Shown here: positions 3,133 through 41,317 of the stretch, piece after piece
Numbering within the stretch: the stretch's first letter is position 1
Layout of the letters: each line of letters begins with the position of its first letter
Source of the DNA: Candidatus Latescibacterota bacterium
GTDB lineage: Bacteria > Latescibacterota > UBA2968
Length of the DNA: 64,000 nucleotides
Direction of reading: 5' to 3'
Assembly (NCBI GenBank): GCA_965204745.1
Contig: OZ242010.1
Coordinates: 224,001 to 288,000, forward strand
Made by a program: the position numbers and the translations under genes
Notes under the pieces: model-generated
What the model was told of the DNA's origin: nothing
Database searches by the model: none
Seen by the model: only the letters and a program-made list of their open reading frames with translations

Positions 3133-3134
3133 CG

Positions 3135-6609: not shown

Positions 6610-6641
6610 ATGATTCCAGTTACCAGCCTCTCTGCATCTTT

Positions 6642-6669: not shown

Positions 6670-6672
6670 GTT

Positions 6673-6877: not shown

Positions 6878-6878
6878 A

Positions 6879-11349: not shown

Positions 11350-11550
11350 TCAGCCTGTCGAGCCAAAGTCGGCGACGAAGATGAGGAAATCGGAGAATCC
11401 AATCTCGCCATCGCCATTGAGATCGCACCGGGCGTCATATCGCTCCTGTCCGAGCCGCGATCCAAACTTATCCGCAAAGGTCAAGAAGTCGGCGAAATTC
11501 ACATTGCCATCGCCATTGCCATCTGTGGCGGTCAAGGAATAGGCTTTCAT
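11350..11550 (-). pseudogene. dockerin/EF-hand-like C-terminal remnant ORF
   Basis: DGNGDGNVNFADFL and DLNGDGEIGFSDFL motifs; no signal peptide; ATGA overlap with upstream gene. Confidence 0.6.
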
Positions 11551-23900: not shown

Positions 23901-26029
23901 CCGATTTCTTAAAACGCCTCCTCGAAAGTCGCTTCCGAATCTCCTCGCAGCTCTATATGAGCATCGGCGGCGCAGTCATGCTCACGATGGGCGCGAGTTT
24001 GGTCGGTTGGTTTTCCTTCGACCGAGTGGGCGACGCCCAAAGCCGCGTGAACGAGGGCAGCGTGCCCGGGATGGCGGCCGCTTTCGGGGTCGCACAACAA
24101 AGCGGTGCATTGGTGGCCGCCGCGCCGCGCGTGGCCTCTGCTGTCTCGCCCGAAGCCTTTGCCCTCGTAACCGCTGAAATCGCCAAAGAGCGCGACACTT
24201 TTGAAGCGCAATTGGCCGCCCTGGCACAGCAAAGCGGCGACGAGGAACGCTTCAGTCGCATTCGCGCCCATGCCAACACCTTGATCTCCAATATCGCGGC
24301 CATCGAACAATCGGTGGCCGAGCGTTTTGTGCTGATCGAGCGCAGCGAAGCCCTGCGCGCAGAACTCGCCGAAGTCCGCGATGTGTTGGTCGGCGCGTTG
24401 GTGCCGGTCATCGACGATCAGTTGTTCTACGCCATGACGGGCTACCGCAGCTTGGGCGAAGTGCCCGCGCCGCGCGAGAAACACTTCTCGGAAGCGGAGT
24501 TTGACCGCTATCGCCATTTGTCCGAGTTGCAATCCGATGTGACTATCGCCATCCAACTTCTCGCAAGCGCGTTCAACCTGTCGGACGCGCCCCTCATCTC
24601 GCCCCTGCGCGAGCGATTCGAAGCGGCCAAGGGCAGAATTGAGCGGAGCTTGTCCGCACTCGAAACCGTTCCCTCGCGCGATCAAGTCGCCCAAATTTGC
24701 GCGCAGTTGTTCAAATTGGGCCTAGGCGAGCAAAGTGGCTTTGACCTGCGTGCCCGAGAACTCGAGTTGGTCGCGCACCAGCGGGAGTTGCTCGCCATGA
24801 ACAACCGCCTCGCCATCGACCTGATCGCAGATATCGAGGGGCTCGTGAGCGAGGCCCGCGTGAGCGTGCAGGAAGCCACGCAGGCTTCTACGCAAACCAT
24901 CAGCACGGGCCGCCGTTTTCTCCTCGCTTTGAATATCATCAGCATCGCTGGAGCCGTGCTGATCGCCTATTTGTTTGTGGGCAGGGTGTTGTTGCGCCGC
25001 CTCGAACGGCTCTCGGATCGCATGCGCGGCATGGCCGATGGCGATTTGGAGGCCAAAGTCGATATCGACGGCCGGGACGAGGTGGCAGATATGGCCGCGG
25101 CCCTCGAGGTTTTCCGCCGTCACGCCCTCGAGGTGCAACGCTTAAATCTGGTGGAAAAGTTGGCCGAAGAGTTGCAAGACAAGAACGCAGAACTCGAAAA
25201 TGTGCTGGCTGACTTGCAGCGCGCACAGGATCAGATCGTCATGCGCGAAAAATTGGCTGCGCTGGGCGAACTCACCGCGGGCGTGGCCCACGAGATCAAA
25301 AACCCGCTGAATTTTGTGAAAAACTTCGCGGAGGTGTCCGCGGAGCTCATCGAGGAATTGGGCGAGATTCTCGAAGAGACCGGCGAGGCCATCAGCGAAG
25401 ATCAGCGCGGTTGGATCGACGAAATCTGCCAAGACCTCACGGACAACCTCGGGCGCATCCGAGAACACGGCACCCGCGCGGACCGCATCGTTCACGACAT
25501 GCTCATGATGGGGCGTGGCGCGGGCGAATCACAGCTCACCAACATCAACAACCTGCTCGACGAACACGCCCGCCTCGCCTATCACAGCGCGCGCGCGGCG
25601 GATCCGAATTTCAATTTGACTATCGAGTCGAATCTCGATCCAAACGCGGGAGAGATCGATATCGTCCCGCAAGACATGGGCCGCGTCTTCCTCAACATGG
25701 TGAGCAATGCCTGCTATGCCACCGACGAGAAGCGGCGCGAATCGACCGCCTCGGGCAAGGCAGGCTACATGCCGATCCTGTCGCTTTCCACGCGGCGCGA
25801 AGATGATCGTCTCGAGGTCAGCATCAAAGACAATGGCAACGGGATTCCACCCGAGGTCGTGGATAAAATTTTCAACCCATTTTTCACCACCAAACCCACG
25901 GATCAAGGCACTGGGCTCGGCCTTGCCCTGTCCAACGACATCGTGCGCGAACACGGCGGAACCATCCACGTCACATCCGAACCCGGCGAATACACCGAGA
26001 TGACGGTTGAGTTGCCATTGAACAAATAA
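23897..26029 (+). CDS. sensor histidine kinase with TorS-like helical periplasmic domain and HAMP
   Basis: Two TMs, GRDEVADMA, AHEIKNPLNF, FFTTKP, GTGLGL. Confidence 0.85.
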   Translation: MTDFLKRLLESRFRISSQLYMSIGGAVMLTMGASLVGWFSFDRVGDAQSRVNEGSVPGMAAAFGVAQQSGALVAAAPRVASAVSPEAFALVTAEIAKERDTFEAQLAALAQQSGDEERFSRIRAHANTLISNIAAIEQSVAERFVLIERSEALRAELAEVRDVLVGALVPVIDDQLFYAMTGYRSLGEVPAPREKHFSEAEFDRYRHLSELQSDVTIAIQLLASAFNLSDAPLISPLRERFEAAKGRIERSLSALETVPSRDQVAQICAQLFKLGLGEQSGFDLRARELELVAHQRELLAMNNRLAIDLIADIEGLVSEARVSVQEATQASTQTISTGRRFLLALNIISIAGAVLIAYLFVGRVLLRRLERLSDRMRGMADGDLEAKVDIDGRDEVADMAAALEVFRRHALEVQRLNLVEKLAEELQDKNAELENVLADLQRAQDQIVMREKLAALGELTAGVAHEIKNPLNFVKNFAEVSAELIEELGEILEETGEAISEDQRGWIDEICQDLTDNLGRIREHGTRADRIVHDMLMMGRGAGESQLTNINNLLDEHARLAYHSARAADPNFNLTIESNLDPNAGEIDIVPQDMGRVFLNMVSNACYATDEKRRESTASGKAGYMPILSLSTRREDDRLEVSIKDNGNGIPPEVVDKIFNPFFTTKPTDQGTGLGLALSNDIVREHGGTIHVTSEPGEYTEMTVELPLNK

Positions 26030-26082
26030 ACGAGGTTAGCCACAAAAGGCACAAAAGCGACAGTCCGTTCAGGAGAGAACAA

Positions 26083-28308
26083 ATGACACAACAATCGGAT
26101 ATCATCCAAGAGATACTCAAAGACAGCGATTATCATCTCGACTTGTTCAGAGAACGGGAAATCGCCACCCTGCGGGAAAAGGTCTTTGTCAAAACGAGCA
26201 GAGGCAGAGAAGTCCCGCATGTGAAGTGCATTGTGCGGGACAAGGATATTCAACTCAAGCCCGAAGAAATCGTCCGCCAACTCTACGCGGCGCGGCTTAT
26301 TGAGCAGTACGGCTATCCCAAAAACCGGTTGGGCTTTGAATACTCGGTCAACTTTGGCAGAGAAAAGAAAAAGGCCGATATCGTCATTTTTGACAAAGAC
26401 CGTTTTGATGCGACCTATATCATCGTGGAGGTCAAAAAGCCCAAGCTCAAAGATGGCAAGGCACAACTCAAGTCCTATTGCAACGCCACGGGCGCGCCGA
26501 TAGGCGTGTGGACAAATGGCGAGCAAATTTCCCATTACCACCGCAAAGACCCCAATTATTTTGAGAACATCACCGACATTCCAAACCGGGATCAAAGCCT
26601 TGAAGATGTCCTCAACCAACGCTTTACCCTGAAAAACCTGATCCTCAAGGATAAGGTCGTCAATAATCAAAAACCTCTGAAAGACATCATTTTGGAAATG
26701 GAAGACGAAGTGCTGGCAAATGCCGGGGTGGATGTATTCGAGGAGGTTTTCAAACTCATATTCACCAAGCTATACGACGAATTTTGCAGTCAGCAGGACA
26801 AAATAGCCATCAATTCTATCGTGCGACAAAAGACAAAAACGGCTGTCAGTGAGCCAAGGTCGGACTATTCCAATGGACAGGATTACGAAGCGATCAAAAA
26901 AGAGGTCAAAAAAATTGACGACGAGGACTTTCGCCCCATGTCGTTTAGGAATACCGGGCAGACCGATGCGGAACTGAAAGCCAAAATCCAAGCCCTGTTC
27001 GATCAGGCCAAAAGCGAGTGGCCCGGGGTTTTTGGGAAAGACGCGACTTTTGAACTCTCCGACAGCCACTTGTCCATTTGCGTGTCCAGCTTGCAGGACG
27101 TGAAGTTGTTCAACTCCAATCTGCTGGTGGTGGATGAAGCCTTTGAGTATCTCGTCAGCAAATCCGCCAAAGGCGAAAAGGGGCAGTATTTCACGCCGCG
27201 CCATGTCATTGATATGTGCGTGCAGATGCTGAATCCCCAACCCGGCGAATACATGATCGACACCGCGTCCGGCAGTTGCGGTTTTCCAGTGCATACCATT
27301 TTCAAACTCACGGGCCATCTGTTCAGCAACGCGGAGATTAAGCCAGAGGAAAAGGCGCATGTCCTGAAAGTGTTCGGCATTGACTTTGATGAAAAAACCG
27401 TTCGCGTCGCCCGCACCTTGAACCTGATCGCCGGCGATGGCGAGACCAATGTGCTGCATTTGAACACGCTGGATTTTGAACGCTGGAGCGACAGAACAGA
27501 AAAAGACAAGCAGTGGATCAGAACTTATGGCGCTGGCTTTGAACGGCTGGAAGAACGGAGAGCCGAAAGAGGTCAGAACAAGCGGTTTAACTTCGATATT
27601 CTGATGGCAAATCCGCCCTTTGCCGGCGACATCAAGGATGGACGTATGTTGCATCAATACGAACTCGGGTTTAAGGCAAACGGCAAGGCGCAAAGCAAAG
27701 TCGGGCGCGACATTCTGTTTATCGAGCGCAATCTGGACTTTCTAAAGCCCGGCGGGCGCATGGCGATAGTGTTGCCGCAAGGCAGATTTAATAACACAAC
27801 CGACGAATACATCAGGGAATTTATCGCCGAGCGCGGGCGCATCCTCGCCGTGGTTGGGCTACACGGCAACACGTTCAAACCGCACACGGGCACCAAAACC
27901 AGCGTGTTGTTCGTGCAGAAATGGGACGATGAACTTTGCCCCCAAGTGGATGACTACCCCATCTTTTTTGCCGTGAGCGAACAGGGAGGGAAAGACAACT
28001 CCGGCGATTATATCCATCTCAAAAACGAGAAAGGGCGGGGCAAGCTGGACAAAAACGGCCATCTGATTGTGGAACATGATTTGCACAACCACGCTGGCGA
28101 ACTGCCCGACGGCATCGCCGAAGCCTTTATCGAATGGGCAAAGGATGAGGGATTGAGTTTTTGGAGAGGTGCAGAAGATGAGCAGAGAACTGATCGCCGC
28201 AACGCATGGCGGGACTTTGTTCGCAACAATCGCAAGCGGGAATTACATGTCGATCCAGATGCCGATATTACTCGTCTGTGCGATGAAGTGAACGTAGCAA
28301 CATCGTAA
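26083..28308 (+). CDS. fused HsdR_N-type nuclease / N6-adenine methyltransferase of an RM system
   Basis: ADIVIF..IVEVK nuclease motif, GQYFTPR, DTASGSCGF, NPPF. Confidence 0.9.
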   Translation: MTQQSDIIQEILKDSDYHLDLFREREIATLREKVFVKTSRGREVPHVKCIVRDKDIQLKPEEIVRQLYAARLIEQYGYPKNRLGFEYSVNFGREKKKADIVIFDKDRFDATYIIVEVKKPKLKDGKAQLKSYCNATGAPIGVWTNGEQISHYHRKDPNYFENITDIPNRDQSLEDVLNQRFTLKNLILKDKVVNNQKPLKDIILEMEDEVLANAGVDVFEEVFKLIFTKLYDEFCSQQDKIAINSIVRQKTKTAVSEPRSDYSNGQDYEAIKKEVKKIDDEDFRPMSFRNTGQTDAELKAKIQALFDQAKSEWPGVFGKDATFELSDSHLSICVSSLQDVKLFNSNLLVVDEAFEYLVSKSAKGEKGQYFTPRHVIDMCVQMLNPQPGEYMIDTASGSCGFPVHTIFKLTGHLFSNAEIKPEEKAHVLKVFGIDFDEKTVRVARTLNLIAGDGETNVLHLNTLDFERWSDRTEKDKQWIRTYGAGFERLEERRAERGQNKRFNFDILMANPPFAGDIKDGRMLHQYELGFKANGKAQSKVGRDILFIERNLDFLKPGGRMAIVLPQGRFNNTTDEYIREFIAERGRILAVVGLHGNTFKPHTGTKTSVLFVQKWDDELCPQVDDYPIFFAVSEQGGKDNSGDYIHLKNEKGRGKLDKNGHLIVEHDLHNHAGELPDGIAEAFIEWAKDEGLSFWRGAEDEQRTDRRNAWRDFVRNNRKRELHVDPDADITRLCDEVNVATS

Positions 28309-28427
28309 GGACAACCCCCTGTGCCTGTCCGATAGGAATCGGATGCACACAACCCGCGCAATTTTGACCGACTAGCAAGGCCAAATCTTCATAATTTAAG
28401 CACCGTCGTTTGAAAGATGGGGGAAGG

Positions 28428-29906
28428 ATGCGGTATTCAGTCGTCAACCTACAAGACATTTCTTTAGAATCGACCATATTTCGGTTGGACTCAGAATTTT
28501 TTCATCCAGAGATATTGAGCACAAAAAAATGGATACGCTCAAAGGCGCATTCTACTTTAAGAAAAATTGGGTCAACCATAATTCATCCATCAGAAGTTAA
28601 AAGAAAATACGAAGAAACGGGCATTCAGATTTTACTGGCCCAAAACATCAGAGATAATTTTCTGGATTTCTCTATCAGGGTCTTCATGGCTAAAAAATTA
28701 GAGAACCTGCTAAAAAAAAACAGACTCGAATATGGAGACATAGCACTCACGAGGTCAGGGGCAAATTATGGACAATGCGCGCCATATCTCGGGTTGCCAT
28801 CGAAAATATTTGCCTGTGCTGACGATTTGGTGATAAAAAATATAAAAATTCCCGGCACGTATTTATCCACTTACCTGAATACATCCTTTGGCAAAAATCT
28901 AATTGAAAGTTGTAAATACGGTGGTTCACAACCCCATATAGCACCGCAAACGCTCTACGATATTCCTATTTACACACCATCGGATAAACTGATTCGCAAA
29001 ATTGATAGGCAAATAAAAAACGCATTTGAGTTGACAAAAAAATCAGAGGCCACATATCGCCAAGCCCAAACCCTCCTCCTCTCTGAACTCGGCCTTGCCA
29101 ACTGGAAGCCCAAGCATCAACTGACCTTTGTCAGAAACTACTCCGATACCCAGCGAGCGGGGCGCATGGACGCCGATTACTTTCAACCCAAATACGAAGA
29201 AATCATCAATGCCATCCTAAGCTACTCCGGTGGATGGGATACGCTGGGGAATTTGGCTTACTTAAAAAACGAGAATTTCAAACCAAAAAGTAAAACAGAG
29301 TACAGATACATTGAACTTGCCAATATCGCAGGCAACGGAGAAATAACCGACTGCATGACAACACGAGGCCGAGATTTGCCAAGCAGAGCAAGACGCAAGG
29401 TGTCAGCGGGAGATGTGATTGTTTCATCTATCGAAGGTTCATTGGATAGCAGTGCCTTAATCAAAAAAGAATATGACGAAGCCCTTTGTTCTACGGGTTT
29501 CCATGTGATCAACTCAGGGGTGTTTAATTCCGAAACGCTGCTTGTGCTGATGAAAAGCATAGTTGGGCAGTTGCAACTCAAGAAGGGGTGTAGTGGTACC
29601 ATTCTAACCGCCATCAACAAGGACGAATTTACTCAGATCGTTTTACCGATAATTGCACAAGAAAAACAGACGCGAATCTCGGAAAAAGTGACCGAGTCCT
29701 TCAACTCGCGAAAGCAATCCAAGCACCTGCTTGAATGCGCCAAGCGAGCGGTGGAACTGGCGATAGAGCAGGACGAACAAACCGCGATTGACTGGTTGGA
29801 AAATGAAAGGAATTGTTATGTTCCGCAAAACCATTGCCGAACCCAAATGCACGCCCAAGGCACAGGTGCTTGCCAGAGCACAAAAGAAAATTTGGGCGAT
29901 CAATGA
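28428..29906 (+). CDS. restriction-modification specificity subunit (HsdS-like)
   Basis: RLDSEFF and RMDADYF repeats, two TRDs, PSRARR, STGF. Confidence 0.85.
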   Translation: MRYSVVNLQDISLESTIFRLDSEFFHPEILSTKKWIRSKAHSTLRKIGSTIIHPSEVKRKYEETGIQILLAQNIRDNFLDFSIRVFMAKKLENLLKKNRLEYGDIALTRSGANYGQCAPYLGLPSKIFACADDLVIKNIKIPGTYLSTYLNTSFGKNLIESCKYGGSQPHIAPQTLYDIPIYTPSDKLIRKIDRQIKNAFELTKKSEATYRQAQTLLLSELGLANWKPKHQLTFVRNYSDTQRAGRMDADYFQPKYEEIINAILSYSGGWDTLGNLAYLKNENFKPKSKTEYRYIELANIAGNGEITDCMTTRGRDLPSRARRKVSAGDVIVSSIEGSLDSSALIKKEYDEALCSTGFHVINSGVFNSETLLVLMKSIVGQLQLKKGCSGTILTAINKDEFTQIVLPIIAQEKQTRISEKVTESFNSRKQSKHLLECAKRAVELAIEQDEQTAIDWLENERNCYVPQNHCRTQMHAQGTGACQSTKENLGDQ

Positions 29907-30105
29907 AGATGTGCTCAACGCCGAGGGACTGACCGAAGATGAGGCTGACGTTGCAATTGAGGCAGGGCTAATCGACCCAGATCAAAAGTACTGGTGGCTC
30001 GAGGACTGGCAGAAGCGTCACCGCAAAGCTGAAGCGGATATTCGAGAAGGACGCATCCGTGCGTTTAATAGTCCCAAAGCATTCCTCGATGCCCTACCCT
30101 CATGA
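29818..30105 (+). CDS. putative antitoxin
   Basis: C-terminal IDPDQKYWWLEDWQ...AEADIREGR motif; ATGA overlap with toxin stub. Confidence 0.65.
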   Translation: MFRKTIAEPKCTPKAQVLARAQKKIWAINEDVLNAEGLTEDEADVAIEAGLIDPDQKYWWLEDWQKRHRKAEADIREGRIRAFNSPKAFLDALPS

Positions 30106-30200
30106 GATATATCCAGACCGACCAATTCAGGGAAGCATTTGCAAAGCTCCCGCAAAGCATCCAACGGCGAGCAAAAAAACAGAGAGAATCGGGAACTTGA
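30102..30200 (+). pseudogene. 5' stub of RelE/ParE-like toxin
   Basis: MRYIQTDQFREAFAKLPQSIQRRAKKQ; remainder found at 34005-34247. Confidence 0.75.
30117..30181 (+). repeat. 65-bp direct repeat R1 (copy at 34005-34069)
   Basis: 62/65 identical by manual alignment. Confidence 0.95.
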
Positions 30201-30212
30201 CAGGAGGAAGAG

Positions 30213-31154
30213 ATGAAAAATTTAATTGACTTGAAATCCTTAACCAAACCCGTAGAGATGCTGATCGAAAAAATCTCTAATGTCGTGGGGGTTCTCTATG
30301 AACCTAAGCGGATCGAAAGAGAAGCAGAGGCTCAGGCAAAGGCTGATGTAATAAAGGCTAAGTCTGAAAATGAGATAACTGCTTTACGACAAAGATCCGA
30401 GCACCGACGGATGATGGAGGAGATGAGACATCAAAAAAATATGGAAAGTATTACTGCTAAAGCATTGCCACAATTGAATGACAATGCAGATGCTAGCCAA
30501 ATGGATGATGATTGGCTAGCCAACTTTTTTGCTAAATGCCGTATTGTCTCTAACGATGAGATGCAAACCCTGTGGTCGCGTATTTTAGCTGGCGAAGCAA
30601 ATACCCCTGGTGCTTACTCAAAAAGGACTGTTAATTGTCTTTCGGAGATGGACAAAGACGAAGCTGAGTTCTTTAAGAAGCTTTGCGGGTTTTGCTGGAG
30701 ATGCAAGATAACAAAAGATTTTCTGCCAACAAATTCTTTTGCTATCTCAAATCAAGTGTATCAAGAAGTTGTAAATGATCCAGATTTAGTGTCTCCGCTG
30801 ATATTTGATTCTAGCGATGCGATCTACAACAAACACGGCATAAGATTTGAGATTTTAGAACACTTCGATAGTATTGGACTTATCAAATTTTTTATGTCGG
30901 TGGATGATAATTTTATATGGACATTTAACGAAGATATTGGAATTTTGGGGATATACCAGGACAAGACCTTTTTTCTCTCGCCAAGTTCTATCGAAAAAGC
31001 TCAGCGCACTGTGAGACTTGGGGTGGTCTCTTTTACAGCAGTAGGAGAAGAACTTGCGACCTTGTGTGAAACTGAACCTGTTGATGGTTTTTATGACTAT
31101 GTGAAAACACAGTGGAAAGAGTATTCGCCCCTGGATATTGCTATTGAATCCTGA
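30213..31154 (+). CDS. DUF2806-like protein
   Basis: DDDWLANFF..VSNDEMQTLWSRILAGE..PGAYSKRT; AT-rich. Confidence 0.75.
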   Translation: MKNLIDLKSLTKPVEMLIEKISNVVGVLYEPKRIEREAEAQAKADVIKAKSENEITALRQRSEHRRMMEEMRHQKNMESITAKALPQLNDNADASQMDDDWLANFFAKCRIVSNDEMQTLWSRILAGEANTPGAYSKRTVNCLSEMDKDEAEFFKKLCGFCWRCKITKDFLPTNSFAISNQVYQEVVNDPDLVSPLIFDSSDAIYNKHGIRFEILEHFDSIGLIKFFMSVDDNFIWTFNEDIGILGIYQDKTFFLSPSSIEKAQRTVRLGVVSFTAVGEELATLCETEPVDGFYDYVKTQWKEYSPLDIAIES

Positions 31155-31218
31155 CGTTACGCAGTATGTCAATCCCGAACAGGAAACGAAATGGCGACGA
31201 TTCACACCCAAAATATCG
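31134..31218 (+). repeat. 85-bp direct repeat R2 (copy at 34284-34368) containing a stop codon, RBS and MATIH start
   Basis: 82/85 identical by manual alignment. Confidence 0.95.
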
Positions 31219-32306
31219 AAGACGAGAGCGGTCTTGAAATTGAACGGGAAGATCCGGAAGAGAAGATCATACATCCATTCGATCCCGATCAGATCAAGAT
31301 CAATACGCGCCATATCCTCGTCGAGCAACTCGTCGCACGCATCAAGCACAGTGAGATTGATCTCGCGCCCGATTTTCAGCGTCACAGCAATCTCTGGAAA
31401 GATGAGAACAGGAGCCGCCTTATCGAGTCACTTCTGCTACGTATTCCCATCCCAGTGTTCTATGTCGCTGCTGACGAGGATGATAACTGGTCTGTCGTCG
31501 ATGGCGTTCAGCGTATGTCAACCATTTATGATTACGTGACGGGTGTGTTTCCCTTGACGCGACTTGAATACTTGAGACTGGACGGACAGAAGTACGATGC
31601 ACTTCGGCGACCCTTGCAGCGGCGAATCAGCGAGACCCAATTCATCGTCAACGTCATTGAACCGGGTACACCGCAGGAGGTTATGTTTAATGTTTTTCGC
31701 AGAATCAATACCGGGGGCATGATGCTGAACGCGCAGGAGATTCGCCACGCGCTCAACCCAGGTCACGTCCGGGATTACCTAAAAACACTCGCCGAATCCG
31801 CCGAGTTCATCACAGCTACAAAGGGGAATATCAAGCCAATCCGGATGGCTGACCGCGAGTGCGTGTTGCGCTTTTTGGCTTTTTATATCGATTCCCCAGG
31901 GGAATATACCACCGACGATCTCGATGGTTTTCTGGGAAATGCAATGCAAAAGATCAACAAAATGAGTCATGAGGAGCGCGATGCGTGTAGCGCGGCTTTC
32001 AAGAAAGCGATGCGTGCGGCGTTCGACATTTTCGGCGAGTACGCCTTTCGCAAGACCAGCAGGAGCGATAGAAAACGCCCGATCAGCAAGATACTGTTTG
32101 AGGTCTGGAGTGCTCAGTTGGCGCGCTGTTCGCCCGATCAGATTCGCGTCCTCGTCAAACGGCGCGAGGATGTTCAACGTCGTTTCATGGAACTAATCGC
32201 AAAAGACGATGAGTTTGAACGGGCGATCTCCTTATCGACCAATACGGTTCGGCGCGTGGAGAAACGTTTTCAAGCGGTTCAACAACTCATCGAGGAATTT
32301 ATCTGA
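31191..32306 (+). CDS. DUF262 (ParB-like) protein, Menshen NsnA-like
   Basis: PDFQR, IESLLLRIPIP, VVDGVQR, FRRINTGG. Confidence 0.8.
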   Translation: MATIHTQNIEDESGLEIEREDPEEKIIHPFDPDQIKINTRHILVEQLVARIKHSEIDLAPDFQRHSNLWKDENRSRLIESLLLRIPIPVFYVAADEDDNWSVVDGVQRMSTIYDYVTGVFPLTRLEYLRLDGQKYDALRRPLQRRISETQFIVNVIEPGTPQEVMFNVFRRINTGGMMLNAQEIRHALNPGHVRDYLKTLAESAEFITATKGNIKPIRMADRECVLRFLAFYIDSPGEYTTDDLDGFLGNAMQKINKMSHEERDACSAAFKKAMRAAFDIFGEYAFRKTSRSDRKRPISKILFEVWSAQLARCSPDQIRVLVKRREDVQRRFMELIAKDDEFERAISLSTNTVRRVEKRFQAVQQLIEEFI

Positions 32307-33424
32307 TGCTAAAAAAAATAAGCCTTGCGAATTTCAAATGCTTTGAGCAGTTGGACTTGGACTGCACCTCTCTCAACTTGCTGTGCGGCTTGAACGGGAT
32401 GGGCAAGAGCAGTGTTATTCAAGCGTTGCTGGTGTTGCGGCAATCGTTTGATACCGGGGAATTGCACAACGGCAGACTCGTTTTGGGCGGAGATCGGATA
32501 GACCTCGGCGCGGGTTCAGATGTGTTGTTCGAAGGTGCTGAGCGCGATATTGTGGGTTTTGTGCTTCAAGACGACGAAATGTTGCATGAGTGGTTCATGG
32601 CCTTTGCTTATTCGCGGGATGCCGACCAATTGAGCGTGGTGATCCCCGACAAACCTACCGATTACATATCCGCTGAATGGCAAAAGGCGTCGCTGTTCGG
32701 AGGCAGGGTCGTCTATGTGAATGCGGAACGGGTCGGCCCCCGGAAGTTTTATCCGCTCTCCGAGGTGCGGGCCAGGTACGGCGACTTTGGGGCAAGCGGC
32801 GAGTACGCGTGGAATTATCTGAATCGCCATCAGAACGATCTTTTGCCGGAGAACGACCCCCGTTGCATTGGCGCGAGGCGGCGACTGCTCGATGTCGTCG
32901 ATCAATGGCTACAGCATGTATGCCCAGGCGCGCACCTGCAACTTGAGGCAGTTGTGGACGCCGACGCGGTCATTGCGGGTTTCTCGTTTGACCGGCCAGG
33001 AGATATTGCGACGCGCCGATACCGTGCGACTAACGTCGGGTTTGGCTTGTCTTACGTGCTACCGGCCATCCTCGCTCTGCTCTCGGATCGCGGGACGCTT
33101 TGCTTGATAGAGAACCCGGAGGCGCACCTGCACCCACGCGGGCAGACGAAATTGGCGGAATTGGCGGCCCGAGCCGCGAGCGCAGGGATCCAAGTATTCG
33201 CCGAGACCCACAGCGATCATTTCATCGACGGCGTCCGCATTGCGGTCAGAGATGAACTCATCGCACCGGAGGACACGGCGTTTCACTACTTTGAACGCGA
33301 CGGGAGCGAGACGGTTGTCACTTCTCCCCAAGTAGATGCGGATGGTCGGCTGTCGCACTGGCCGGAAGGATTTTTCGATCAGCACGAAGAAAATTTGGCT
33401 CAACTGATCGGCCCGAGGTCGTAA
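32306..33424 (+). CDS. ABC/AAA ATPase with DUF3696, Menshen NsnB-like
   Basis: GLNGMGKS, NVGFG, IENPEAHLHP, ETHSDH, WPEGFFDQ. Confidence 0.85.
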   Translation: MLKKISLANFKCFEQLDLDCTSLNLLCGLNGMGKSSVIQALLVLRQSFDTGELHNGRLVLGGDRIDLGAGSDVLFEGAERDIVGFVLQDDEMLHEWFMAFAYSRDADQLSVVIPDKPTDYISAEWQKASLFGGRVVYVNAERVGPRKFYPLSEVRARYGDFGASGEYAWNYLNRHQNDLLPENDPRCIGARRRLLDVVDQWLQHVCPGAHLQLEAVVDADAVIAGFSFDRPGDIATRRYRATNVGFGLSYVLPAILALLSDRGTLCLIENPEAHLHPRGQTKLAELAARAASAGIQVFAETHSDHFIDGVRIAVRDELIAPEDTAFHYFERDGSETVVTSPQVDADGRLSHWPEGFFDQHEENLAQLIGPRS

Positions 33425-33425
33425 T

Positions 33426-34247
33426 ATGCGCGAAATGGTACTCAACCACGCGAGCCTTGGTTCGCCCGATCAACATACCGCCGTAGGGTGGCTGAAAGAG
33501 GTGACGGTCGGCATGAAGATGCTGGTTAGGGACAAAATCGCAAAACCTACTCTGAGAATGCGTCAGTCCCATGCTGAAATCCTTTGCCTGTCTAACTGGT
33601 CGCTGGGGGACGCGCTTCAGGAACTGCGGAAAGGTGGGGCGCGAGATGAGTACTTATTTTTTGCGCGCCTGACATCCAAGGTTCCACTTTTGTGCGACAT
33701 CGATCATGAGGTTGCAGATCGGTTTCGGGCGTGCGAGGCGACGACATTGCCGCCGGAAGATGGAGAGCCACTCGTTTTGTGCGCTATCACCGATGGCATA
33801 GCGGTTGGGTTTCCATCGGCTCCGGTTTGGGACTGCGATCAGCTAACGATCCATTTTGATGAACTACTGCCCGATGAAAGTATTGGGGAAGCGTCTGAAA
33901 TAATTGACAATCTCACGCGGTCCGCCCATGTTCAACCGATCTGTGAACGACATCGCGCTGGTCTCTGCGATCAATTCCCAAACGCCGCCGCATTGTGGAA
34001 TGGCACCGACCAATTCAGGGAAGCATTTGCAAAGCTCCCGCAACGCATCCAACGACTAGCAAAAAAACAACTCACCCTCTTTTTTCAAAACTACCGCTAT
34101 CCCTCTCTGCAAACCAAAAAAATGGAAGGTCACAATGATCTTTTTGAAGGCAGAATTACCAGAGGCTACCGCTTTATCTATCGCATGACTGGTGATACTT
34201 GTTATATCATCGACATTGGTACGCACGATGTTCTAAATCGGTATTAA
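33426..34247 (+). CDS. NsnC-position protein fused to C-terminal RelE/ParE-like domain
   Basis: Third gene of operon; last 80 aa (YPSLQTKKMEG..RITRGYRFIY..DIGTHD) RelE-like and begin exactly at repeat R1. Confidence 0.65.
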   Translation: MREMVLNHASLGSPDQHTAVGWLKEVTVGMKMLVRDKIAKPTLRMRQSHAEILCLSNWSLGDALQELRKGGARDEYLFFARLTSKVPLLCDIDHEVADRFRACEATTLPPEDGEPLVLCAITDGIAVGFPSAPVWDCDQLTIHFDELLPDESIGEASEIIDNLTRSAHVQPICERHRAGLCDQFPNAAALWNGTDQFREAFAKLPQRIQRLAKKQLTLFFQNYRYPSLQTKKMEGHNDLFEGRITRGYRFIYRMTGDTCYIIDIGTHDVLNRY

Positions 34248-34340
34248 AGGGCGAAGTGTAGGTAATCCTCCTCATCCTGGGGAGATGTTGCTATTGAATC
34301 CTGACGTTACGCAGTATGTCAATCCCGAACAGGAAACGAA

Positions 34341-34565
34341 ATGGCGACGATTCACATCCAAAGTATCGGTGAGAAAGTGTTGCTGCCACAAAGCGAACTC
34401 GAACGCCTCGTAGAATTGCACCGCGAAGATATCGTCTTGGACAGACGGGAAGACGGTGCGTCAACAGGACGTATCATGCACTTGGTGGCCCAAAGCGGCG
34501 CGTTTGACTTTTGGAAAGAGGAAGGAGAAGATATTTACTCCTTCGAGGACGGAGAACCGGTGTGA
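34341..34565 (+). CDS. putative antitoxin of PemK/MazF-type pair
   Basis: Acidic C-terminus AFDFWKEEGEDIYSFEDGEPV; GTGA overlap with MazF-like stub. Confidence 0.65.
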   Translation: MATIHIQSIGEKVLLPQSELERLVELHREDIVLDRREDGASTGRIMHLVAQSGAFDFWKEEGEDIYSFEDGEPV

Positions 34566-35773
34566 CGCGCCCAACGCTTTTTCGCGGTCAAGTGGTACTG
34601 ACGCGGTTTCCATTTACAAAACAAATTTTAAGGCCGCTTTACATGAATAATCTAGAAATTTTCACTCCTGAAGAACGAGAGGAAAACGAAAAACGAAAGC
34701 GTGAACTAATTGAACTTGTTGCTTCAAGAGAGTCTGTACTCATCGTTGGGGCTGGAAGTAGTGTTCGTGTGGGCTATGTGGATTGGTCTCGTCTTCTAAA
34801 AGAACTGGAGGATTTAGCCATCGCCTGGGGTGAAGATTTTGTGAAAGATGATAGAAAGCGCGAAAATGACCCATTAGAATACGCTGAAGATATCAAATCG
34901 CATATTGATAAAACAGGCAACTTAGCCAAATATCATGCGTTGCTCTATGACTTGTTTAAGCCCAAGACTCCTTCGTTTGATGATTTACACAAAACGCTGG
35001 TCGCGTTACCCTTCAGAGGAATTTTAACGACAAACTACGATACAGTGCTCGAAGCCGCGTTAGCTGAACAAGAACCGCTAACTGCTTTTGACAACTCATT
35101 GGTTATTGATAGCAGATCCGCCGCTCGAGTTGATGAATTTTTCAGGGCAATGATTGATAGCAACCTAACACGACGTATTGCACACTTACACGGAAAATTT
35201 GAGCCTCCAGATAGCATTATTCTAAGTATCAAAGACTACGAAAGGGCTTACGGTTTGAAGCTACCTATAAATCAAGTGCAGAAAGATAGAGATTTTGAAT
35301 GGACACTTCGCCGAAAATTTTTGTGGGCTGTATTCGCTACTCGCCGCGTCGTTTTTATAGGTTTCAGCATGAGAGACCCCTATCTTAACAAAATGTTGGA
35401 GACTGTCAGCACAGATTTGTGGAAATGGGGACAATCTACACACATTGCGATTATGAGTATCTCGCCCCAAAATGCCGATACCGACAAACAAGAGGCAGAA
35501 CTACTCAAAAACAAGTATGGTGTTGACACGGTATTCTACGAAGATTTAGATGGGTCGCATCTACGTTTAGACCATTTCGTCTCTGAAATCTCCAAAGTTT
35601 GTGAGAGTGAGCGTCAGTCAACCATTGCTCCAGCGATAAACCAGCCAAGTGCTAGAGATCGATCCGAATATGAAAAACCAAGACCCAATGAGAGTGCGTC
35701 TCAAGGTGTATTGAATTGGCTAGAACAAGTGAATGAACGTCTGGAAAGGGGCATTAACGACGATGAAAATTAA
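34562..35773 (+). CDS. SIR2_2-family NADase-like effector (own ATG at 34643; in-frame MazF-like 19-codon stub upstream)
   Basis: VGAGSS, LTTNYD, HLHG, FIGFSMRDP. Confidence 0.85.
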   Translation: MTRPTLFRGQVVLTRFPFTKQILRPLYMNNLEIFTPEEREENEKRKRELIELVASRESVLIVGAGSSVRVGYVDWSRLLKELEDLAIAWGEDFVKDDRKRENDPLEYAEDIKSHIDKTGNLAKYHALLYDLFKPKTPSFDDLHKTLVALPFRGILTTNYDTVLEAALAEQEPLTAFDNSLVIDSRSAARVDEFFRAMIDSNLTRRIAHLHGKFEPPDSIILSIKDYERAYGLKLPINQVQKDRDFEWTLRRKFLWAVFATRRVVFIGFSMRDPYLNKMLETVSTDLWKWGQSTHIAIMSISPQNADTDKQEAELLKNKYGVDTVFYEDLDGSHLRLDHFVSEISKVCESERQSTIAPAINQPSARDRSEYEKPRPNESASQGVLNWLEQVNERLERGINDDEN

Positions 35774-38700
35774 ACGAAAAAAATTGCTTGAGGACTTGCA
35801 GAGCTTTGCTTCGCAAGGAAATGGCGTAATTATCGGCAATCCTGGCGTTGGAAAAACATATCTACTGAAAGAACTTCGCCGAAGCCTAAAGTCCGAAGGA
35901 ACGCCTCATCTCCTTTTGCGGATTGACCAACTCGGTGATGGCACGGACAAAACGTTGCGGCAAGTGTTGTCGTACGAAGGTGATCTGATTGAAAAGTTGA
36001 AGTTCGTTCCCACTTCACACGAGAAATCAATTCTATTGTTTGACGCCTTTGACGCTGCTCGAAATGAACAGACGCGCAAACGCTTTCTGCACCTAATCCA
36101 ACGAGCAATCCATGAACTCAGCGAGTCGTGGAATGTCGTCGTTACGGTACGAACTTACGACGCAATGAAATCGCAAGAACTATTGGATATGTTTGGCAAT
36201 CCTTATGGCACCGATCTACCCCAATACCATAGCAAAGAGATTTTATGCCGACATTTCACAATTCCACCTTTGAATGAAGATGAAATTCAACAAGCCTTTG
36301 ACCAGATTCCGCATCTGGAGTCTATCTACAAATCTGGCTCTCAAGACTTTAAGTGCCTCCTTGCAAATCCATTCAATATCTGGCTATTGAAAAAAATCCT
36401 AAAGACCTCACAGAACATTCCCGATTTTAGTCACATTCATTCTGAAGTCCAATTACTCGGTTTGTTTTGGCAACGACGCATTGAGTCTTCAAGCGATGCA
36501 GATGCCCGTGGGTTTATCCTCACAAAGATCGCACGTCAGATGGTTGAGGAACGTTCACTGACCGTCAGGCAGGAAGACATTTATGAAAACCTACGCCTTG
36601 ACAAAGCAATGAGATGGACAGCATGGAATGGTCTCCTAAGCGATGAGATATTGTCCAAGGTTTCCTCAACAGGACAACGTATTGCTTTTTCTCACAACAT
36701 TCTCTTTGACTATGCAATCAGCGTCTTGCTCATTGAAGACGCCCCCAAAAAACTCGAAGTTTTTGTGCGTGAAGACCCATCGCGTCCGCTCTTTCTCCGC
36801 CCAAGCCTCACATATTTTTTTACTCGCCTCTGGTACTATGATGAGGCTCCTGAAAAATTTTGGAACGCTTTCTGGCATATTTTACCAAGCGATCAATCTG
36901 CACATTTGCGTCTATTTGCACGCTTGATTCCGACGAGTGTTGTCGCAAATGAGGCCCGCAAAATCACGCAGTTGAAACCAATTTTGAAGAAACTAAAGCA
37001 GAGAGAAGAACTCGCAAACGAAGCGACAATGCGGCTTTTGCAATCACTCCGTGCCCTACAGATCGAACGCGACGAACTTTGGATCGGGTTCTTCAACCAG
37101 GTTTCGGCACACTATCACGCCGACTTTGCCTGGGATTTGGCAACCCGCACTTCAGATATTCTTGAACGAGCGACAAACACCGATAACACGGCTATCATAG
37201 ACGCTTGTGGACGAGTTGGCCGTCGACTGCTCGGATGGGTATGGCAAGAAAGAGAGACAAGTGGTAATGATTGGTATAATCGGCTTGGTAGTTTTCGGGC
37301 GGTGCCGCTTGTCGCCAAAACGTATGGTACAAATGTCAAAGAATCGCGTCCTCTTCTCGAAAAGGTTCTCGAACTAACAAAAGAAGATAACTTCCCAATA
37401 AATTTTCTCACGCAGTTGGCCAGACATGTTGACAACATTTGGGGTTCTGATCCCGCGTTTGTCGCCTTGACCTATTGCACGGTATTCACACATTCCGAGA
37501 CGGGCGATGCACAGACAAACCTACCCATAAGTAGCCCCCTTTTAACTTTCACAAGCAATCGCCGCCAAGACTACGGCAGTTGTCAATATCTGTTGATAAA
37601 ACATTTCCCCGCCTTTCTTCAGGCAAATCCATTAGTCGCAACGCGAGCGGCGATCCGAAGTCTGATTTTTTTTGTTAAGAAAGAACATATTGACGGATAC
37701 CTCAAAGAAGGTGTGAAGGGTGAAGATTTGATAGAGACATTCGAGTTTCGTGGAAAAGACGCGTACTTTGTGCAAGACAATAGTTGTATATGGGATGAAC
37801 GAGAGTACCGCAATGAACCAATTGAAATTGCGGATAAGTTATTTCAATTCATCGCCGAAACGGCACGGTCAAACGGTTCGCTTCTCGATTCACTGCTCGA
37901 TGTTTTCCGTGATGAAGTGGGAGTCGCTTTTTTTTGGAAACGGCTCTTGAAGACAGCGGCTCAGTTTCCCGATGTTTTCGCACCGCACTTGTTTGAACTT
38001 TGTATAGCGAAACCGATACAAATAGGGGGCGATGCCCTTCATGAGCTCGGTCTATTTTTAGAAGCGGTTGCCTCTAAGTTTACGCCCGAACAACTGCGCC
38101 GGATTGAAGAGACCATTTTGGGACTTCCTTCGGAAGCAACGAGCGAAGATGACGCCAAAATCTTTGAACGACGGAGAAATCGGCTCATATCAAGGATATC
38201 GAGTGACTTGCTTCAAACGCGAGACGCCAAAGAGATCAAAAAAGAAATGGAGCGAACGGATCGAGTGCCCCCAAACGAGCCTTTATTCAGCTACAAATCT
38301 TGGTCAGAACCCTATACTGAAGAAAAGTGGCTTCGAGATCAAGGTGTTGACACCGCCACGCCGGAAAATCAAGAATTACAATGCTTTTTCGGGCCTCTCG
38401 ATAAATTCAGATTAGAGTGGTTAAATAAAATACCAACAGAGGAAGCCACCGAGTTGATTTTACCGCCATTACAGGAGGCATACGCCACCGTAAATGAAAA
38501 TAATAAAGCGACGAAAAAGATAATTGATTCTCTTTGGTATAAGTTGACTGCTTGCGTTGCAGTCCTCGGCCGAGTTACTAACCTTGAGAGCAAATGGTTC
38601 TCTTTTTGCCGTCAAGTGCTTCTACAAGCTGCAAAACATGAACTGCCCAAGCTAGATACAAGCGATGTTCAATCCGATACTCCTATGTATTCCCCATTTC

Positions 38701-39922: not shown

Positions 39923-41317
<1,395 letters not shown>

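Follow-up and report, generated by a model that had tools for sequence, protein, structure and literature searches.

The window, that is, the whole stretch of 64,000 nucleotides that was analysed, contains a 14-kb stretch between a histidine kinase gene and an ammonium transporter gene that probably represents a mosaic defence island. The features are given below; their ORF coordinates confirmed the gene order of an earlier note on this DNA (antitoxin, RelE stub, DUF2806, DUF262/ATPase/gene 3, remainder of RelE, antitoxin).

23708–26029, + strand: sensor histidine kinase, left core gene and left island border (Pfam HATPase_c/HisKA/HAMP)
26083–29906, + strand: type I-like restriction-modification module, with a methylase carrying an HSDR_N_2 N-domain (26083–28308) and a specificity subunit (28410–29906)
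29803–30105, + strand: antitoxin 1 (AT1), intact, 64–71% identical to antitoxins ahead of intact RelE in four relatives
30102–30200, + strand: RelE/ParE toxin stub of 32 codons (codons 1–27, then five foreign codons and a stop), with an ATGA overlap with AT1
30117–30181, + strand: R1, direct repeat of 65 nt, RelE codons 6–27
30213–31154, + strand: DUF2806/Abi_alpha-like gene (Pfam DUF2806 5e-39, Abi_alpha 1e-4), last six codons and stop within R2
31134–31218, + strand: R2, direct repeat of 85 nt, comprising the DUF2806 end, a MITE-end motif, a ribosome site and the first nine codons of antitoxin 2
31191–32306, + strand: NsnA, a ParB/DUF262 sensor whose start is borrowed (PADLOC NsnA 1e-141; Pfam GmrSD_N 1e-20)
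32306–33424, + strand: NsnB, ABC-type ATPase with DUF3696 (PADLOC NsnB 4e-105; Pfam AAA_15, AAA_21, DUF3696)
33426–34247, + strand: chimeric NsnC (gene 3), N-domain residues 1–193 (33426–34004) in frame with RelE residues 6–85 (34005–34244)
34005–34069, + strand: R1′, second copy of R1, within chimeric NsnC
34284–34368, + strand: R2′, native-context copy of R2, upstream of and into antitoxin 2
34341–34565, + strand: antitoxin 2 (AT2), native resident, flanked by the same core genes in the relative G018
34562–34618, + strand: PemK/MazF toxin stub (∼19 codons, by comparison with full-length toxins from relatives), its frame continuing into the SIR2 gene
34643–39824, + strand: defence pair of SIR2 (34643–35773) and STAND NTPase (35733–39824) (Pfam SIR2_2, NACHT)
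39923–41317, + strand: ammonium transporter, right core gene and right island border (Pfam Ammonium_transp 1e-97)

The GC content dropped at ∼25.9 kb from ∼0.60 to 0.40–0.50. The kinase gene was 90% identical to positions 1813–3818 of locus L022 in G018, with antitoxin 2 beginning 21 nt beyond there, and the ammonium transporter gene was 90% identical to positions 5569–7006 of the same locus. The methylase and specificity genes (Pfam N6_Mtase, HSDR_N_2; PADLOC MTase_I 1e-288, Specificity_I 1e-29) shared 87–90% identity with G018 locus L017 as far as window position 29806. DUF2806 directly follows hsdS in G018 and follows SIR2-STAND in G005 and G006; the SIR2/STAND pair here gave ThsA/LmuA-like and PDC-M54A (8e-195) matches in PADLOC. 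A Pfam scan of 50 of the 55 non-overlapping ORFs of at least 90 aa in the 64-kb window (the other five being short, ∼90–115 aa, and outside the island) revealed no integrase, and the sole transposase was of the IS110 type (61381–62388), 27 kb away, in agreement with the claim that neither enzyme is encoded nearby.

Both repeat pairs were reproduced where the earlier note had placed them. R1 and R1′ (65 nt, 95% identity) are spaced by 3888 nt and R2 and R2′ (85 nt, 96% identity) by 3150 nt, with the copies differing at three positions in each pair. When the 5,482,115-bp genome was queried with window 34005–34368, three matches were obtained (self; R2, E = 7e-34; R1, E = 1e-22), and blastn-short detected no further copies of either repeat longer than 22 nt across this genome. 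The gene order of the genome is scrambled relative to five relatives, and the contig terminates within a gene. A 24-nt piece of R2 yielded no matches among JGI metagenome contigs. R1 and R1′ have at least four derived substitutions in common relative to four orthologues, and the two pairs are true duplications that arose inside the present lineage. Apart from the end of DUF2806, R2 consists mostly of intergenic sequence; as had been claimed, it supplies the DUF2806 stop (31152–31154), the ribosome-binding site and the start codon of the DUF262 gene (ATG at 31191, MATIH...). In silico recombination also behaved as predicted. Joining R1 with R1′ restored an 85-codon ORF whose product shares 74–77 of its 85 residues with the intact 85-aa toxins from two relatives, and joining R2 with R2′ deleted 3150 bp while keeping the DUF2806 stop and the 74-aa antitoxin 2 (73/74 identical). 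The joints showed microhomology of 1–8 nt and no core common to all.

The DUF262/ATPase/gene 3 operon, previously called Menshen-like, matched the PADLOC profiles for NsnA, NsnB and NsnC and is, by these matches, a Menshen system. Homology to the Menshen operons of relatives ends at 31218/31221 and 33998/34005 in four loci (a fifth, L019, is a partial operon with homology ending at 32577), so each terminal gene has lost one end and is joined in frame to other sequence, which speaks against the discrete cassette envisaged earlier. NsnA homology starts at EDESGLEIE, and its ribosome site and initial nine codons derive from antitoxin 2. The PADLOC NsnC profile was covered over positions 1–192 of 316 here versus 1–311 in the G016 orthologue; NsnC is 312–313 aa long in four relatives, and alignment of the chimera fails past residue 193. 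Because the gene 3 frame stays open through R1′, the "rest of RelE" is no free remnant: the earlier note correctly placed the toxin remainder at R1′ but missed that it forms the in-frame C terminus of NsnC, where it would now be the effector domain. The RelE part retains 21 of 21 family-invariant residues, and Pfam ParE_like matched chimera residues 207–268 with 23.3 bits, slightly below the curated cut-off of 24.4; the relatives' toxin was classed as ParE_like/ParE_toxin.

A structure model of G016 NsnC (pLDDT 89.4) returned RelE/YoeB toxins as the only high-probability Foldseek matches (3g5o_B, probability 0.99, TMt 0.70; 2khe; 1wmi), over ∼110 columns with E values of only 0.06–0.4, and the native C-terminal domain is RelE-like according to this model. 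The fusion junction maps to the linker between its helices 166–182 and 187–192. The chimeric NsnC model was poor overall (pLDDT 68.4), with values of 82–94 in the RelE part. Each of the two fusions preserves the reading frame and coincides with a domain or start boundary. Judged from sequence, RelE/ParE residues 6–85 appear to replace the native RelE-like effector domain of NsnC, and we infer that the chimera is active. Among proteins of 150–478 aa, no other NsnC fused to the same toxin family was found (three matches, all ordinary NsnC). In its available part, the work of Li et al. (2025; PMC12065111) assigns the archetypal NsnC-C domain to the BECR/RelE superfamily, together with 9 of 15 NsnC-C families, and infers constant shuffling of this domain.

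AT1 and the dead 32-aa stub sit 3.9 kb upstream of the toxin remainder in NsnC. Alignment of AT1 with its relatives left 54 of 124 columns invariant, and one tblastn match in this genome (G000) indicated a single copy. An intact antitoxin-RelE pair was present in 4 of 20 same-genus genomes, lying just downstream of Menshen in G019 and G002 (Menshen-(VOC)-AT1-RelE); these pairs occupy a different locus and are therefore orthologues, not empty sites. The AT2 partner in G002 and G017 is a 117-aa toxin, the G017 copy being PemK/MazF (Pfam 1.6e-12). G018 has an empty site: between its copies of the two core genes lie only AT2 and ∼1.5 kb of further DNA with an ORF and REP repeats. The R2′ core begins there 21 nt past the kinase stop; R2′ from 34310 onward is homologous to L022 3840–4099 (86%), and the first 26 nt of R2 are missing.

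Unitigs from other samples carried the joints hsdS-AT1-R1, NsnC-R1′ (29–30 nt past the joint), R1′-to-R2′ (run X12) and R2-NsnA (run X5), and no other sample's unitigs contained the R1-to-DUF2806 joint (30181/30182); other DNA precedes DUF2806 in X5, X12 and another strain of run X10. In runs from other studies (coded P6 and P2), unitigs are interrupted at 30146 and 34034, which would be expected if R1 had two contexts there too; unitigs of these runs also carry the four joints listed above. Run X10 (86% of sampled words) contained unitigs identical to the window along with unitigs of other strains, two loose ends of which are absent from the genome. These other strains have different DNA directly after the RelE stub (30177) and directly before DUF2806 (30178), and one joint goes back from 31144 to 29856 (depth 46.9). 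That the same breakpoints recur with different partners in co-occurring strains could reflect an exchange more ordered than illegitimate recombination at random. A run X1 unitig from a divergent strain leads from DUF2806 through R2 into AT2. A single copy in a relative was found only in part: for R2 in this one low-depth unitig (7.4) and at the G018 site, and for R1 in intact genes at another locus. States resembling the two predicted deletion alleles exist (4/20 genomes; the X1 unitig), but the intact TA pairs are located elsewhere. The proposed swapping of cargo agrees with the alternative DNA at shared breakpoints; no other cargo lies next to R1 or R2 anywhere in the genome. The unitig data gave no sign of ongoing excision.

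A genome-wide census, a descriptive count, identified 61 isolated direct-repeat pairs, 28 of them strictly two-copy. The 17 two-copy pairs at least 2 kb apart, to which the census is confined (11 closer two-copy pairs being left out), comprise R1, R2 and 15 pairs in 13 other loci. Restriction-modification, CBASS, retron-type RT, DNA methylase or TA-like genes lie between or at the repeats in 11 of these 13. Each has its own unrelated repeat, mostly non-TA, and this, like the largely intergenic nature of R2, argues against TA genes as a general landing pad. At the CBASS locus a methylase gene contributes its 3′ end as the repeat; in G018 this 160-nt repeat occurs once, at the flank-to-flank junction, with a partial 50-nt copy ∼5 kb off. 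The hsdS end is duplicated (66 nt) around a DUF2806 remnant in G018, and an MNT gene is duplicated around unknown cargo at L041.

From direct observations, namely the repeats, chimeric frames, truncation points, empty site and genome-wide pattern, we infer an order of events. With a probability of roughly 0.6, the locus is a mosaic defence island built by repeated illegitimate recombination, the repeats being scars, in which Menshen was rebuilt with part of a RelE/ParE toxin as NsnC effector. The island would have grown around the resident antitoxin 2/PemK pair by microhomology events, at least two of which would have left R1/R1′ and R2/R2′, each the overlap of two partial copies of one local sequence. 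In NsnC, the N-terminal domain that docks onto NsnB (published as inPIN) would have been retained, and the original RelE-like (BECR) effector domain would have given way, in frame at the interdomain linker, to residues 6–85 of a type II toxin; AT1 may have been retained because it still restrains the borrowed domain. The repeats are by-products of recombination rather than recognition sites, and rare RecA-type deletions could occur between them. Because the two pairs are interleaved, two simple nested insertions are insufficient; on every path drawn, two or three events had to create three novel joints, and no intermediate of island assembly was seen whole. The pattern would correspond to the "insertion with long target duplication" published for restriction-modification systems, a class described in the available part of Furuta et al. 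(2010; PMC2853133) together with gene fusion during such insertions. The scars would show at the DNA level how Menshen-type effectors exchange killing domains.

The reversible, integron-like exchange of the earlier note, with TA genes as short-homology landing pads, cassettes with an R1 or R2 copy moving as circles and excision restoring the toxin, appears quite improbable. The restored 85-aa toxin and clean DUF2806-AT2 junction, the X1 unitig, the alternative partners at one X10 breakpoint (30177/30178) with the 31144-to-29856 joint, and TA genes broken or duplicated elsewhere (the PemK stub, the MNT gene at L041) are compatible with it. However, R1 and R2 are not reused in the genome or, for the R2 piece, in JGI contigs; the window encodes no recombinase, the joints share no common site, the cargo lacks ends of its own, other loci use unrelated repeats, R1 excision would destroy the NsnC effector, and the divergent origin of the X1 unitig points to an older state rather than fresh excision. 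Tandem duplication of a ∼4–5-kb block (e.g., DUF2806-Menshen-AT1-RelE(5′)) followed by two deletions, without insertion into the toxin, is unlikely but carries some weight. What survives would be two partial copies that complement each other, one with the antitoxin and the 5′ end of the toxin and the other with the toxin 3′ end on NsnC; R1 and R2 would be their overlaps. Duplication followed by loss would be expected to permute module order circularly among genomes, and such permutation is seen: Menshen-AT1-RelE (G019, G002) versus AT1-RelE′-...-Menshen′-′RelE here, SIR2-STAND-DUF2806 (G005, G006) versus DUF2806...SIR2-STAND, and AT2-hsdM (G006) versus hsdM...AT2. The 31144-to-29856 joint suits a DUF2806-AT1 adjacency, and repeat-flanked restriction-modification units amplify, according to the available part of Furuta et al. 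(2010; PMC2853133). Against this, three events are required, no tandem intermediate was seen, and duplication alone leaves the AT2 codons in the R2 copy unexplained; it overlaps the mosaic-island reading, differs in pathway only, and is inseparable from it on present data.

It is highly improbable that haplotypes of related strains were joined at common sequence during assembly of this single-contig genome. The mixture of window-identical and other-strain unitigs in X10, with its two absent loose ends, the scrambled gene order and the contig end inside a gene would fit such an artefact, whereas the three differences in each repeat pair, the P6/P2 breaks, the four joints recovered from other samples and the in-frame fusions at domain or start boundaries oppose it. 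We likewise give very little credence to a transposon-driven origin, in which a MITE terminal repeat in R2 acts as a transposase site and nicking seeds insertions to its left. The 14-mer CTGACGTTACGCAG (31151–31164 in R2) of a ∼100-copy MITE is perfect in R2 and R2′, with new DNA directly left of it at three joints (kinase end in G018, DUF2806 end in G000, spacer before R2′), and two more joints have a related diverged or partly read motif (hsdS end in G018 and in the X10 strain). Yet the copies share one orientation and form no inverted pair, the window has no matching transposase, the motif is missing at 11 of the 13 other repeat-flanked loci and from R1, and lone copies of similar motifs ahead of other genes point to an operator-like element.

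Compared with known systems, the locus resembles an integron in its promoterless-looking cargo behind a resident start region and its flanking repeats, but IntI, an attC-like common element, a cassette array and reuse of R1/R2 are absent, and the joints are of the microhomology type. As in type II RelE/ParE pairs, the antitoxin overlaps the toxin start by ATGA; unlike in them, the toxin is split, with codons 1–27 in a dead stub and codons 6–85 in NsnC. Insertion with long target duplication of restriction-modification systems was reportedly described by Nobusato et al. in 2000. The cases in the available part of Furuta, Abe and Kobayashi (2010; PMC2853133) likewise have a few kilobases of defence genes between direct repeats of more than 30 bp with no further copies in the genome, lack mobility genes inside, show gene fusion at the joint, and have a single copy of the repeat sequence where there is no insert. 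Their cargo is an R and M gene pair, in contrast to Menshen plus part of a TA gene here, where the duplications are interleaved and both cargo ends are truncated genes; beyond those restriction-modification cases, the same pattern in this genome surrounds CBASS, retron-type RT and TA modules. The operon agrees with Menshen, as far as the available part of PMC12065111 describes it, in its three genes in standard order, NsnA with ParB/DUF262, NsnB as an ABC ATPase with DUF3696, and NsnC with an N-terminal domain, a RelE/BECR superfamily C-terminal effector and a pattern of effector replacement. Unlike in the systems described there, the donor is identifiable here as a bona fide type II toxin gene, with a 65-nt duplication at the joint, and its antitoxin and 5′ stub persist in the same locus.

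The most interesting feature of this locus is an effector-domain swap in a Menshen operon for which the donor toxin gene, its antitoxin and the joint are all still visible. The operon lies in an island bordered by a histidine-kinase gene and an ammonium-transporter gene, with a GC content of 0.40–0.50 except for a stretch of 0.55–0.60 at 32.4–34.0 kb; the genome is at ~0.60. The modules occur in the following order.

26083-28308: methylase gene (hsdM) of a type I-like methylase and specificity pair (hsdM-hsdS)
29803-30105: AT1 (antitoxin 1), followed by a 32-codon RelE/ParE stub
30117-30181: repeat R1
after the stub: DUF2806/Abi_alpha-like gene
31134-31218: repeat R2
after the DUF2806 gene: Menshen genes NsnA, NsnB and NsnC (PADLOC)
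34005-34069: repeat R1'
34284-34368: repeat R2'
34341-34565: AT2 (antitoxin 2)
34562-34643: ~19 codons of a PemK/MazF toxin, the partner of AT2
last: SIR2 gene and STAND NTPase gene (PDC-M54A, 8e-195)

The truncated PemK/MazF gene reads in frame into the SIR2 gene without a stop and forms the third in-frame joint of the island. The methylase bears an HSDR_N_2 (nuclease-type) N-terminal domain, and a separate R subunit gene is not adjacent. The rest of the window (5662-6609, 11547-19184 and 48404-49488) contains two adjacent TIR-domain genes, an ankyrin-repeat gene, a PIN gene and a 2545-aa ORF that matched no Pfam family.

Both repeat pairs were found where the earlier note had placed them: R1 and R1' are 65 nt long, 95% identical and 3888 bp apart, and R2 and R2' are 85 nt long, 96% identical and 3150 bp apart. 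The gene order that it described, the ATGA overlap of AT1 with the toxin stub, and the DUF2806 stop and MATIH start within R2 were all reproduced. Joining R1 to R1' in a script yielded an open 85-codon frame whose product is identical at 74–77 of 85 positions to the full-length toxins in two relatives, and joining R2 to R2' retained the DUF2806 stop along with a 74-aa AT2. When 34005-34368 was used to query the whole 5,482,115-bp genome, the only matches were the query itself, R2 (E 7e-34) and R1 (E 1e-22), and short-word BLAST of the genome gave no further R1- or R2-like match longer than 22 nt. R1 and R2 are neither chance matches nor members of a repeat family. A 24-nt R2 pattern had 0 matches in the JGI metagenome, the DUF2806 protein gave 122 pattern matches there with no confirmed relative, and a promoter and terminator scan of 29600-34800 returned nothing exceeding shuffles. 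An origin of the left end of R2 from the 3' end of the kinase gene (GTTGCTATTGAA vs GTTGCCATTGAA) was set aside because the match is too short to claim.

NsnA carries a ParB/DUF262 domain (PADLOC NsnA, 1.1e-141 over residues 12-371; Pfam GmrSD_N, 1.2e-20), and NsnB is an ABC-type ATPase with a DUF3696 tail (PADLOC, 4.2e-105; Pfam AAA_15, AAA_21, and DUF3696 at 7.5e-17). The first nine codons of NsnA are derived from AT2, and homology to the relatives starts at EDESGLEIE; the relatives' NsnA proteins (383–501 aa) possess their own longer N-terminus. The NsnC gene passes through R1' without a stop, a point that the earlier note had missed. Its N-terminal part matches positions 1-192 of the 316-position PADLOC NsnC profile (E 1.3e-24), with an inactive-PIN domain predicted, and residues 207-268 match Pfam ParE_like at 23.3 bits, just under the cut-off of 24.4. 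The orthologue from the relative G016 matches the NsnC profile end to end. In four relatives NsnC comprises 312–313 residues, and its alignment with the window protein breaks after residue 193.

According to Li et al. 2025 (PMC12065111), NsnC consists of an inactive-PIN domain at the N-terminus, which docks on NsnB, and an effector domain at the C-terminus; they report a BECR/RelE-type RNase as the archetypal effector (nine of 15 effector families being BECR) and refer to "constant shuffling" of this domain. When an AlphaFold model of G016 NsnC (pLDDT 89.4) was compared with the PDB by Foldseek, RelE/YoeB toxins aligned to the C-terminal ~110 residues (3g5o_B, probability 0.99, TMt 0.70; 2khe; 1wmi); these were the only hits with both high probability and high target coverage, at weak E-values of 0.06–0.4. 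A RelE-like native C-domain, as indicated by the model and Foldseek, agrees with the published domain scheme. Because the break is predicted to fall in the interdomain linker (helices 166-182 and 187-192 of the G016 model), we conclude that residues 6-85 of a bona fide TA toxin have taken the place of the native RelE-like domain, in frame and at the equivalent position. None of the 21 residues that are invariant in a family alignment of 16 sequences is lost from this RelE-derived part, and its RelE/ParE domain belongs to the BECR superfamily named by Li et al. The model of the chimeric protein was poor overall (pLDDT 68.4), probably due to the mixed alignment, and was used for the fold of the C-terminal part only. 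Among the 150–478-aa proteins of a library of 5.8 billion clusters, no other NsnC joined to this toxin was found; the three hits were all ordinary NsnC.

The RelE/ParE toxin is split here into the 32-aa stub and the 80-residue part fused to NsnC. It is intact (85 aa) in four relatives, and the one orthologue scanned, from G019, matched Pfam ParE_like at 29.2 bits. AT1 is present in single copy and retains 54 of 54 invariant positions in a five-sequence alignment. The predicted complex of AT1 with the RelE-derived domain scored 0.24, with the mark at 0.32, a value that speaks neither for nor against binding.

The comparison set comprised 61 genomes, 20 of them of the same genus. The Menshen operon was present at 72–88% DNA identity in five same-genus genomes (only partially in G018), and G035 gave a partial match. 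In four of five fetched loci, the part homologous to the window runs from 31218/31221 to 33998/34005, which is precisely the interval separating R2 from R1'; the fifth (L019, from G018) has a partial operon that matches as far as 32577. An intact pair of AT1 and toxin occurs in four of the 20 same-genus genomes, and in G019 and G002 it follows Menshen on the same strand at a distance of 0.6–4 kb, within a hotspot to the left of a dioxygenase gene. Since this hotspot is broken up in the source genome (G000), the relatives' intact pairs are orthologues elsewhere and not empty sites. The oxidoreductase...dioxygenase-dehydrogenase-permease block, whose order is kept in five relatives, maps 0.04–2.8 Mb apart in G000, and the single G000 contig ends inside the dioxygenase gene (C1, 5481334-5482113); the scattering could be a real rearrangement or an assembly problem.

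An empty site for the whole island was found in G018: between its kinase and transporter genes, which are 90% identical, lie only AT2, an ORF and REP repeats. The stretch homologous to R2' (from 34310 on) begins there 21 nt past the kinase stop, and the first 26 nt of R2 are absent. AT2 and its upstream region are therefore native to this locus, and 26023-34309 is an addition. Genomes differ in module order by circular permutation, with SIR2-STAND-DUF2806-antitoxin in G005 (L046, C19, 4313-10641) and G006 (L047) versus DUF2806...SIR2-STAND here (30213-39824); AT2 is followed by an hsdM of the same type in G006, and here hsdM-hsdS lies upstream of AT2. In G018 the hsdS end is duplicated (66 nt, 86%) around a DUF2806 remnant with REP and RAYT. 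At locus L017 of that genome (C1:2931000-2942000), positions 4949-5781 hold a REP array of 126-nt tandem units and an ORF, which we take to be REP-associated tyrosine-transposase-like, in place of most of DUF2806. REP units also occur at the G018 empty site and, in another strain, adjoining window position 34613.

The read evidence consists of Logan unitigs, which cannot reveal circles or rare deletions. Run X10 (86% of sampled words) yielded unitigs identical to the window at a depth of ~54, together with unitigs of other strains that include two loose ends absent from the genome. Runs of other studies, read over the window parts with unitig cover, contained the hsdS-AT1-R1 joint (X12, 29659-30146), the NsnC-R1' joint (X12, 33178-34034, reaching only 29–30 nt past the joint), the R1'-to-R2' stretch (X12, 34025-34356) and the R2-NsnA joint (X5, 31189-33207); the R1-DUF2806 joint was not seen in the unitigs of these other runs. 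Unitigs end at 30146 and 34034, which is what two contexts of R1 in those runs would produce, and these breaks, along with the joints in other studies' runs, argue against an assembly artifact. Alternative joints were also observed at these same positions, with different DNA following the RelE stub at 30177, different DNA preceding DUF2806 at 30178, the native NsnC continuation past 34005, and the DUF2806 end leading into AT1 (31144 to 29856, depth 46.9). A unitig of run X1, from a divergent strain, runs from DUF2806 through R2 into AT2 (31209 to 34426, depth 7.4). Co-occurring strains hold the same modules in other arrangements.

The earlier note had viewed the TA genes as landing pads for defense cassettes that behave in an integron-like manner. 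Its statement that no integrase or nearby transposase is present held up: the Pfam scan covered 50 of 55 non-overlapping ORFs (at least 90 aa) in the window and detected neither Phage_integrase nor another recombinase family among them, and the nearest transposase, of IS110 type, is 27 kb away (61381-62388). The integron-like reading itself is not supported: no IntI-type recombinase was found among these ORFs, a repeat search showed no inverted pair at either end of the cargo, and R1 and R2 are mutually unrelated. The expectation that R1 or R2 would border other cargo also failed, each having two copies in the 5.48 Mb and no others. A MITE of ~330 bp with the terminal inverted repeat CTGACGTTACGCAG has ~100 genome copies (119 motif hits with at most two mismatches; e.g., G000:C1:142775-143061) and no Rfam family; its 14-mer occurs perfectly once in R2 (31151-31164) and once in R2' (34301-34314), and solo motifs resembling the MITE end lie upstream of other genes (G000 142676 and 2387858). 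A composite transposon or MITE pair was rejected, given that both motif copies are on the + strand rather than inverted and that the island contains no transposase.

At least four substitutions absent from four orthologues are common to R1 and R1', which are copies made within this lineage. The NsnC|RelE joint has ~1–2 nt of microhomology (the native continuation being known from a unitig), the RelE|DUF2806 joint has ACA, or up to 8 nt, and the R2|NsnA joint possibly has ATATCG; the novel joints have no common core. Short microhomology without a shared core points to illegitimate recombination, and not to a site-specific system, as the probable source of the joints. The interleaved arrangement of the repeat pairs requires a minimum of two or three events. 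A Menshen-TA1 block may have been inserted into AT2, with local transposition or deletion afterward, or the same result may have come from a tandem duplication and two later deletions; the circularly permuted module order favors duplication-and-loss as a likely part of the process. The locus is best seen as Menshen rebuilt from local parts by recombinase-free, repeat-leaving recombination.

For restriction-modification systems, Furuta et al. 2010 (PMC2853133) described "insertion with long target duplication," with repeats >30 bp, no mobility genes and occasional gene fusion at the insertion joint, a pattern to which this locus corresponds. As to single-copy repeats in insert-free genomes, R2 is represented by the G018 core from 34310 and by one divergent DUF2806-R2-AT2 unitig, and R1 by the intact toxin of four relatives at another locus. 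A genome-wide census of direct repeats of at least 40 nt, seeded by 16-mers occurring exactly twice and 300–12000 bp apart, returned 1624 pairs, mostly in giant repetitive genes. Sixty-one pairs were isolated and 28 of these were strictly two-copy by BLAST. The tally covers the 17 pairs at least 2 kb apart (R1, R2 and 15 pairs in 13 loci), with 11 closer pairs left out. Defense, restriction-modification or TA-like genes were located between or at the repeats in 11 of the 13 loci (Pfam, PADLOC), in a purely descriptive count: a type III system, a type I system, a type II enzyme with a Dcm methylase, a type ISP enzyme, a retron-type RT-Toprim with PDC-S19, a CBASS (cyclase with patatin), three DNA methylases, a PLD/HATPase/helicase set with an HSDR_N gene, a type I R-like gene, an MNT gene duplicated around unknown cargo, and an HTH/PIN set. 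The other two loci contained transposases (TnpB, DDE) and unknown small ORFs.

The direct repeats that enclose defense, restriction-modification and TA modules at L028, L029, L032, L036, L037, L039 and L041-L045 of G000 are unique, 41–190 nt long and 2–6 kb apart. Multi-copy (MITE-like) repeats at 5 of the first 12 census loci were dropped (the second L030 pair, L031, L034, with six copies, L035 and L038). At the CBASS locus, the flanks lie 348 bp apart in G018 and a single copy of the 160-nt repeat stands at their junction, with a partial 50-nt copy ~5 kb away. A genus-wide search gave no clean empty site for the DarTG locus L034 or the type ISP locus L036 because synteny is scrambled. Among the papers listed on long target duplication (since 2016) and on repeat-flanked defense hotspots, no extension to non-restriction defense systems was found, which weakly suggests that such an extension is not in print.

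Constant shuffling of the NsnC C-domain has so far been inferred by comparison, without a donor or a mechanism. This locus displays the donor (a neighboring RelE/ParE toxin gene), the joint (in frame, in the interdomain linker, with 1–2 nt of microhomology) and the leftovers (antitoxin, toxin stub and 65-nt duplication). It also extends the neglected long target duplications of restriction-modification systems to other defense types in one genome, opens the mechanism of such insertions to testing in a lineage in which they seem frequent, and raises the question of whether a TA antitoxin is kept to control a defense effector built from its own toxin. We tentatively assign a probability of roughly 0.3 to a joint reading in which type II toxins of defense islands would be a live reservoir for Menshen killing domains, the swap would use the same repeat-leaving recombination that moves whole systems (restriction-modification, CBASS, retron, Menshen) in this lineage, and the orphan antitoxin would act as a trans-acting brake on the chimera. 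If true, bacterial immunity would have, in insertion with long target duplication, a general way of moving systems and shuffling domains without a recombinase, and the locus would be a caught intermediate.

The locus resembles Menshen in its NsnA with ParB/DUF262, its NsnB ATPase with DUF3696 and its NsnC with an N-domain and a C-terminal effector. Unlike type II RelE/ParE TA systems, it has no intact toxin gene coupled to the antitoxin, and unlike an integron it has no IntI next to the array (50 of 55 window ORFs) and, by the repeat search, no attC-like inverted pair at the cargo ends. With the class described by Furuta et al. 2010 it shares repeats >30 bp (65 and 85 nt), an insert <20 kb (3888 and 3150 bp), no multi-copy element, and no mobility genes in or beside the insert by the Pfam scan of the window; it differs from that class in that the insert consists of Menshen and DUF2806 rather than R and M genes, and the restriction-modification module lies outside the repeats.
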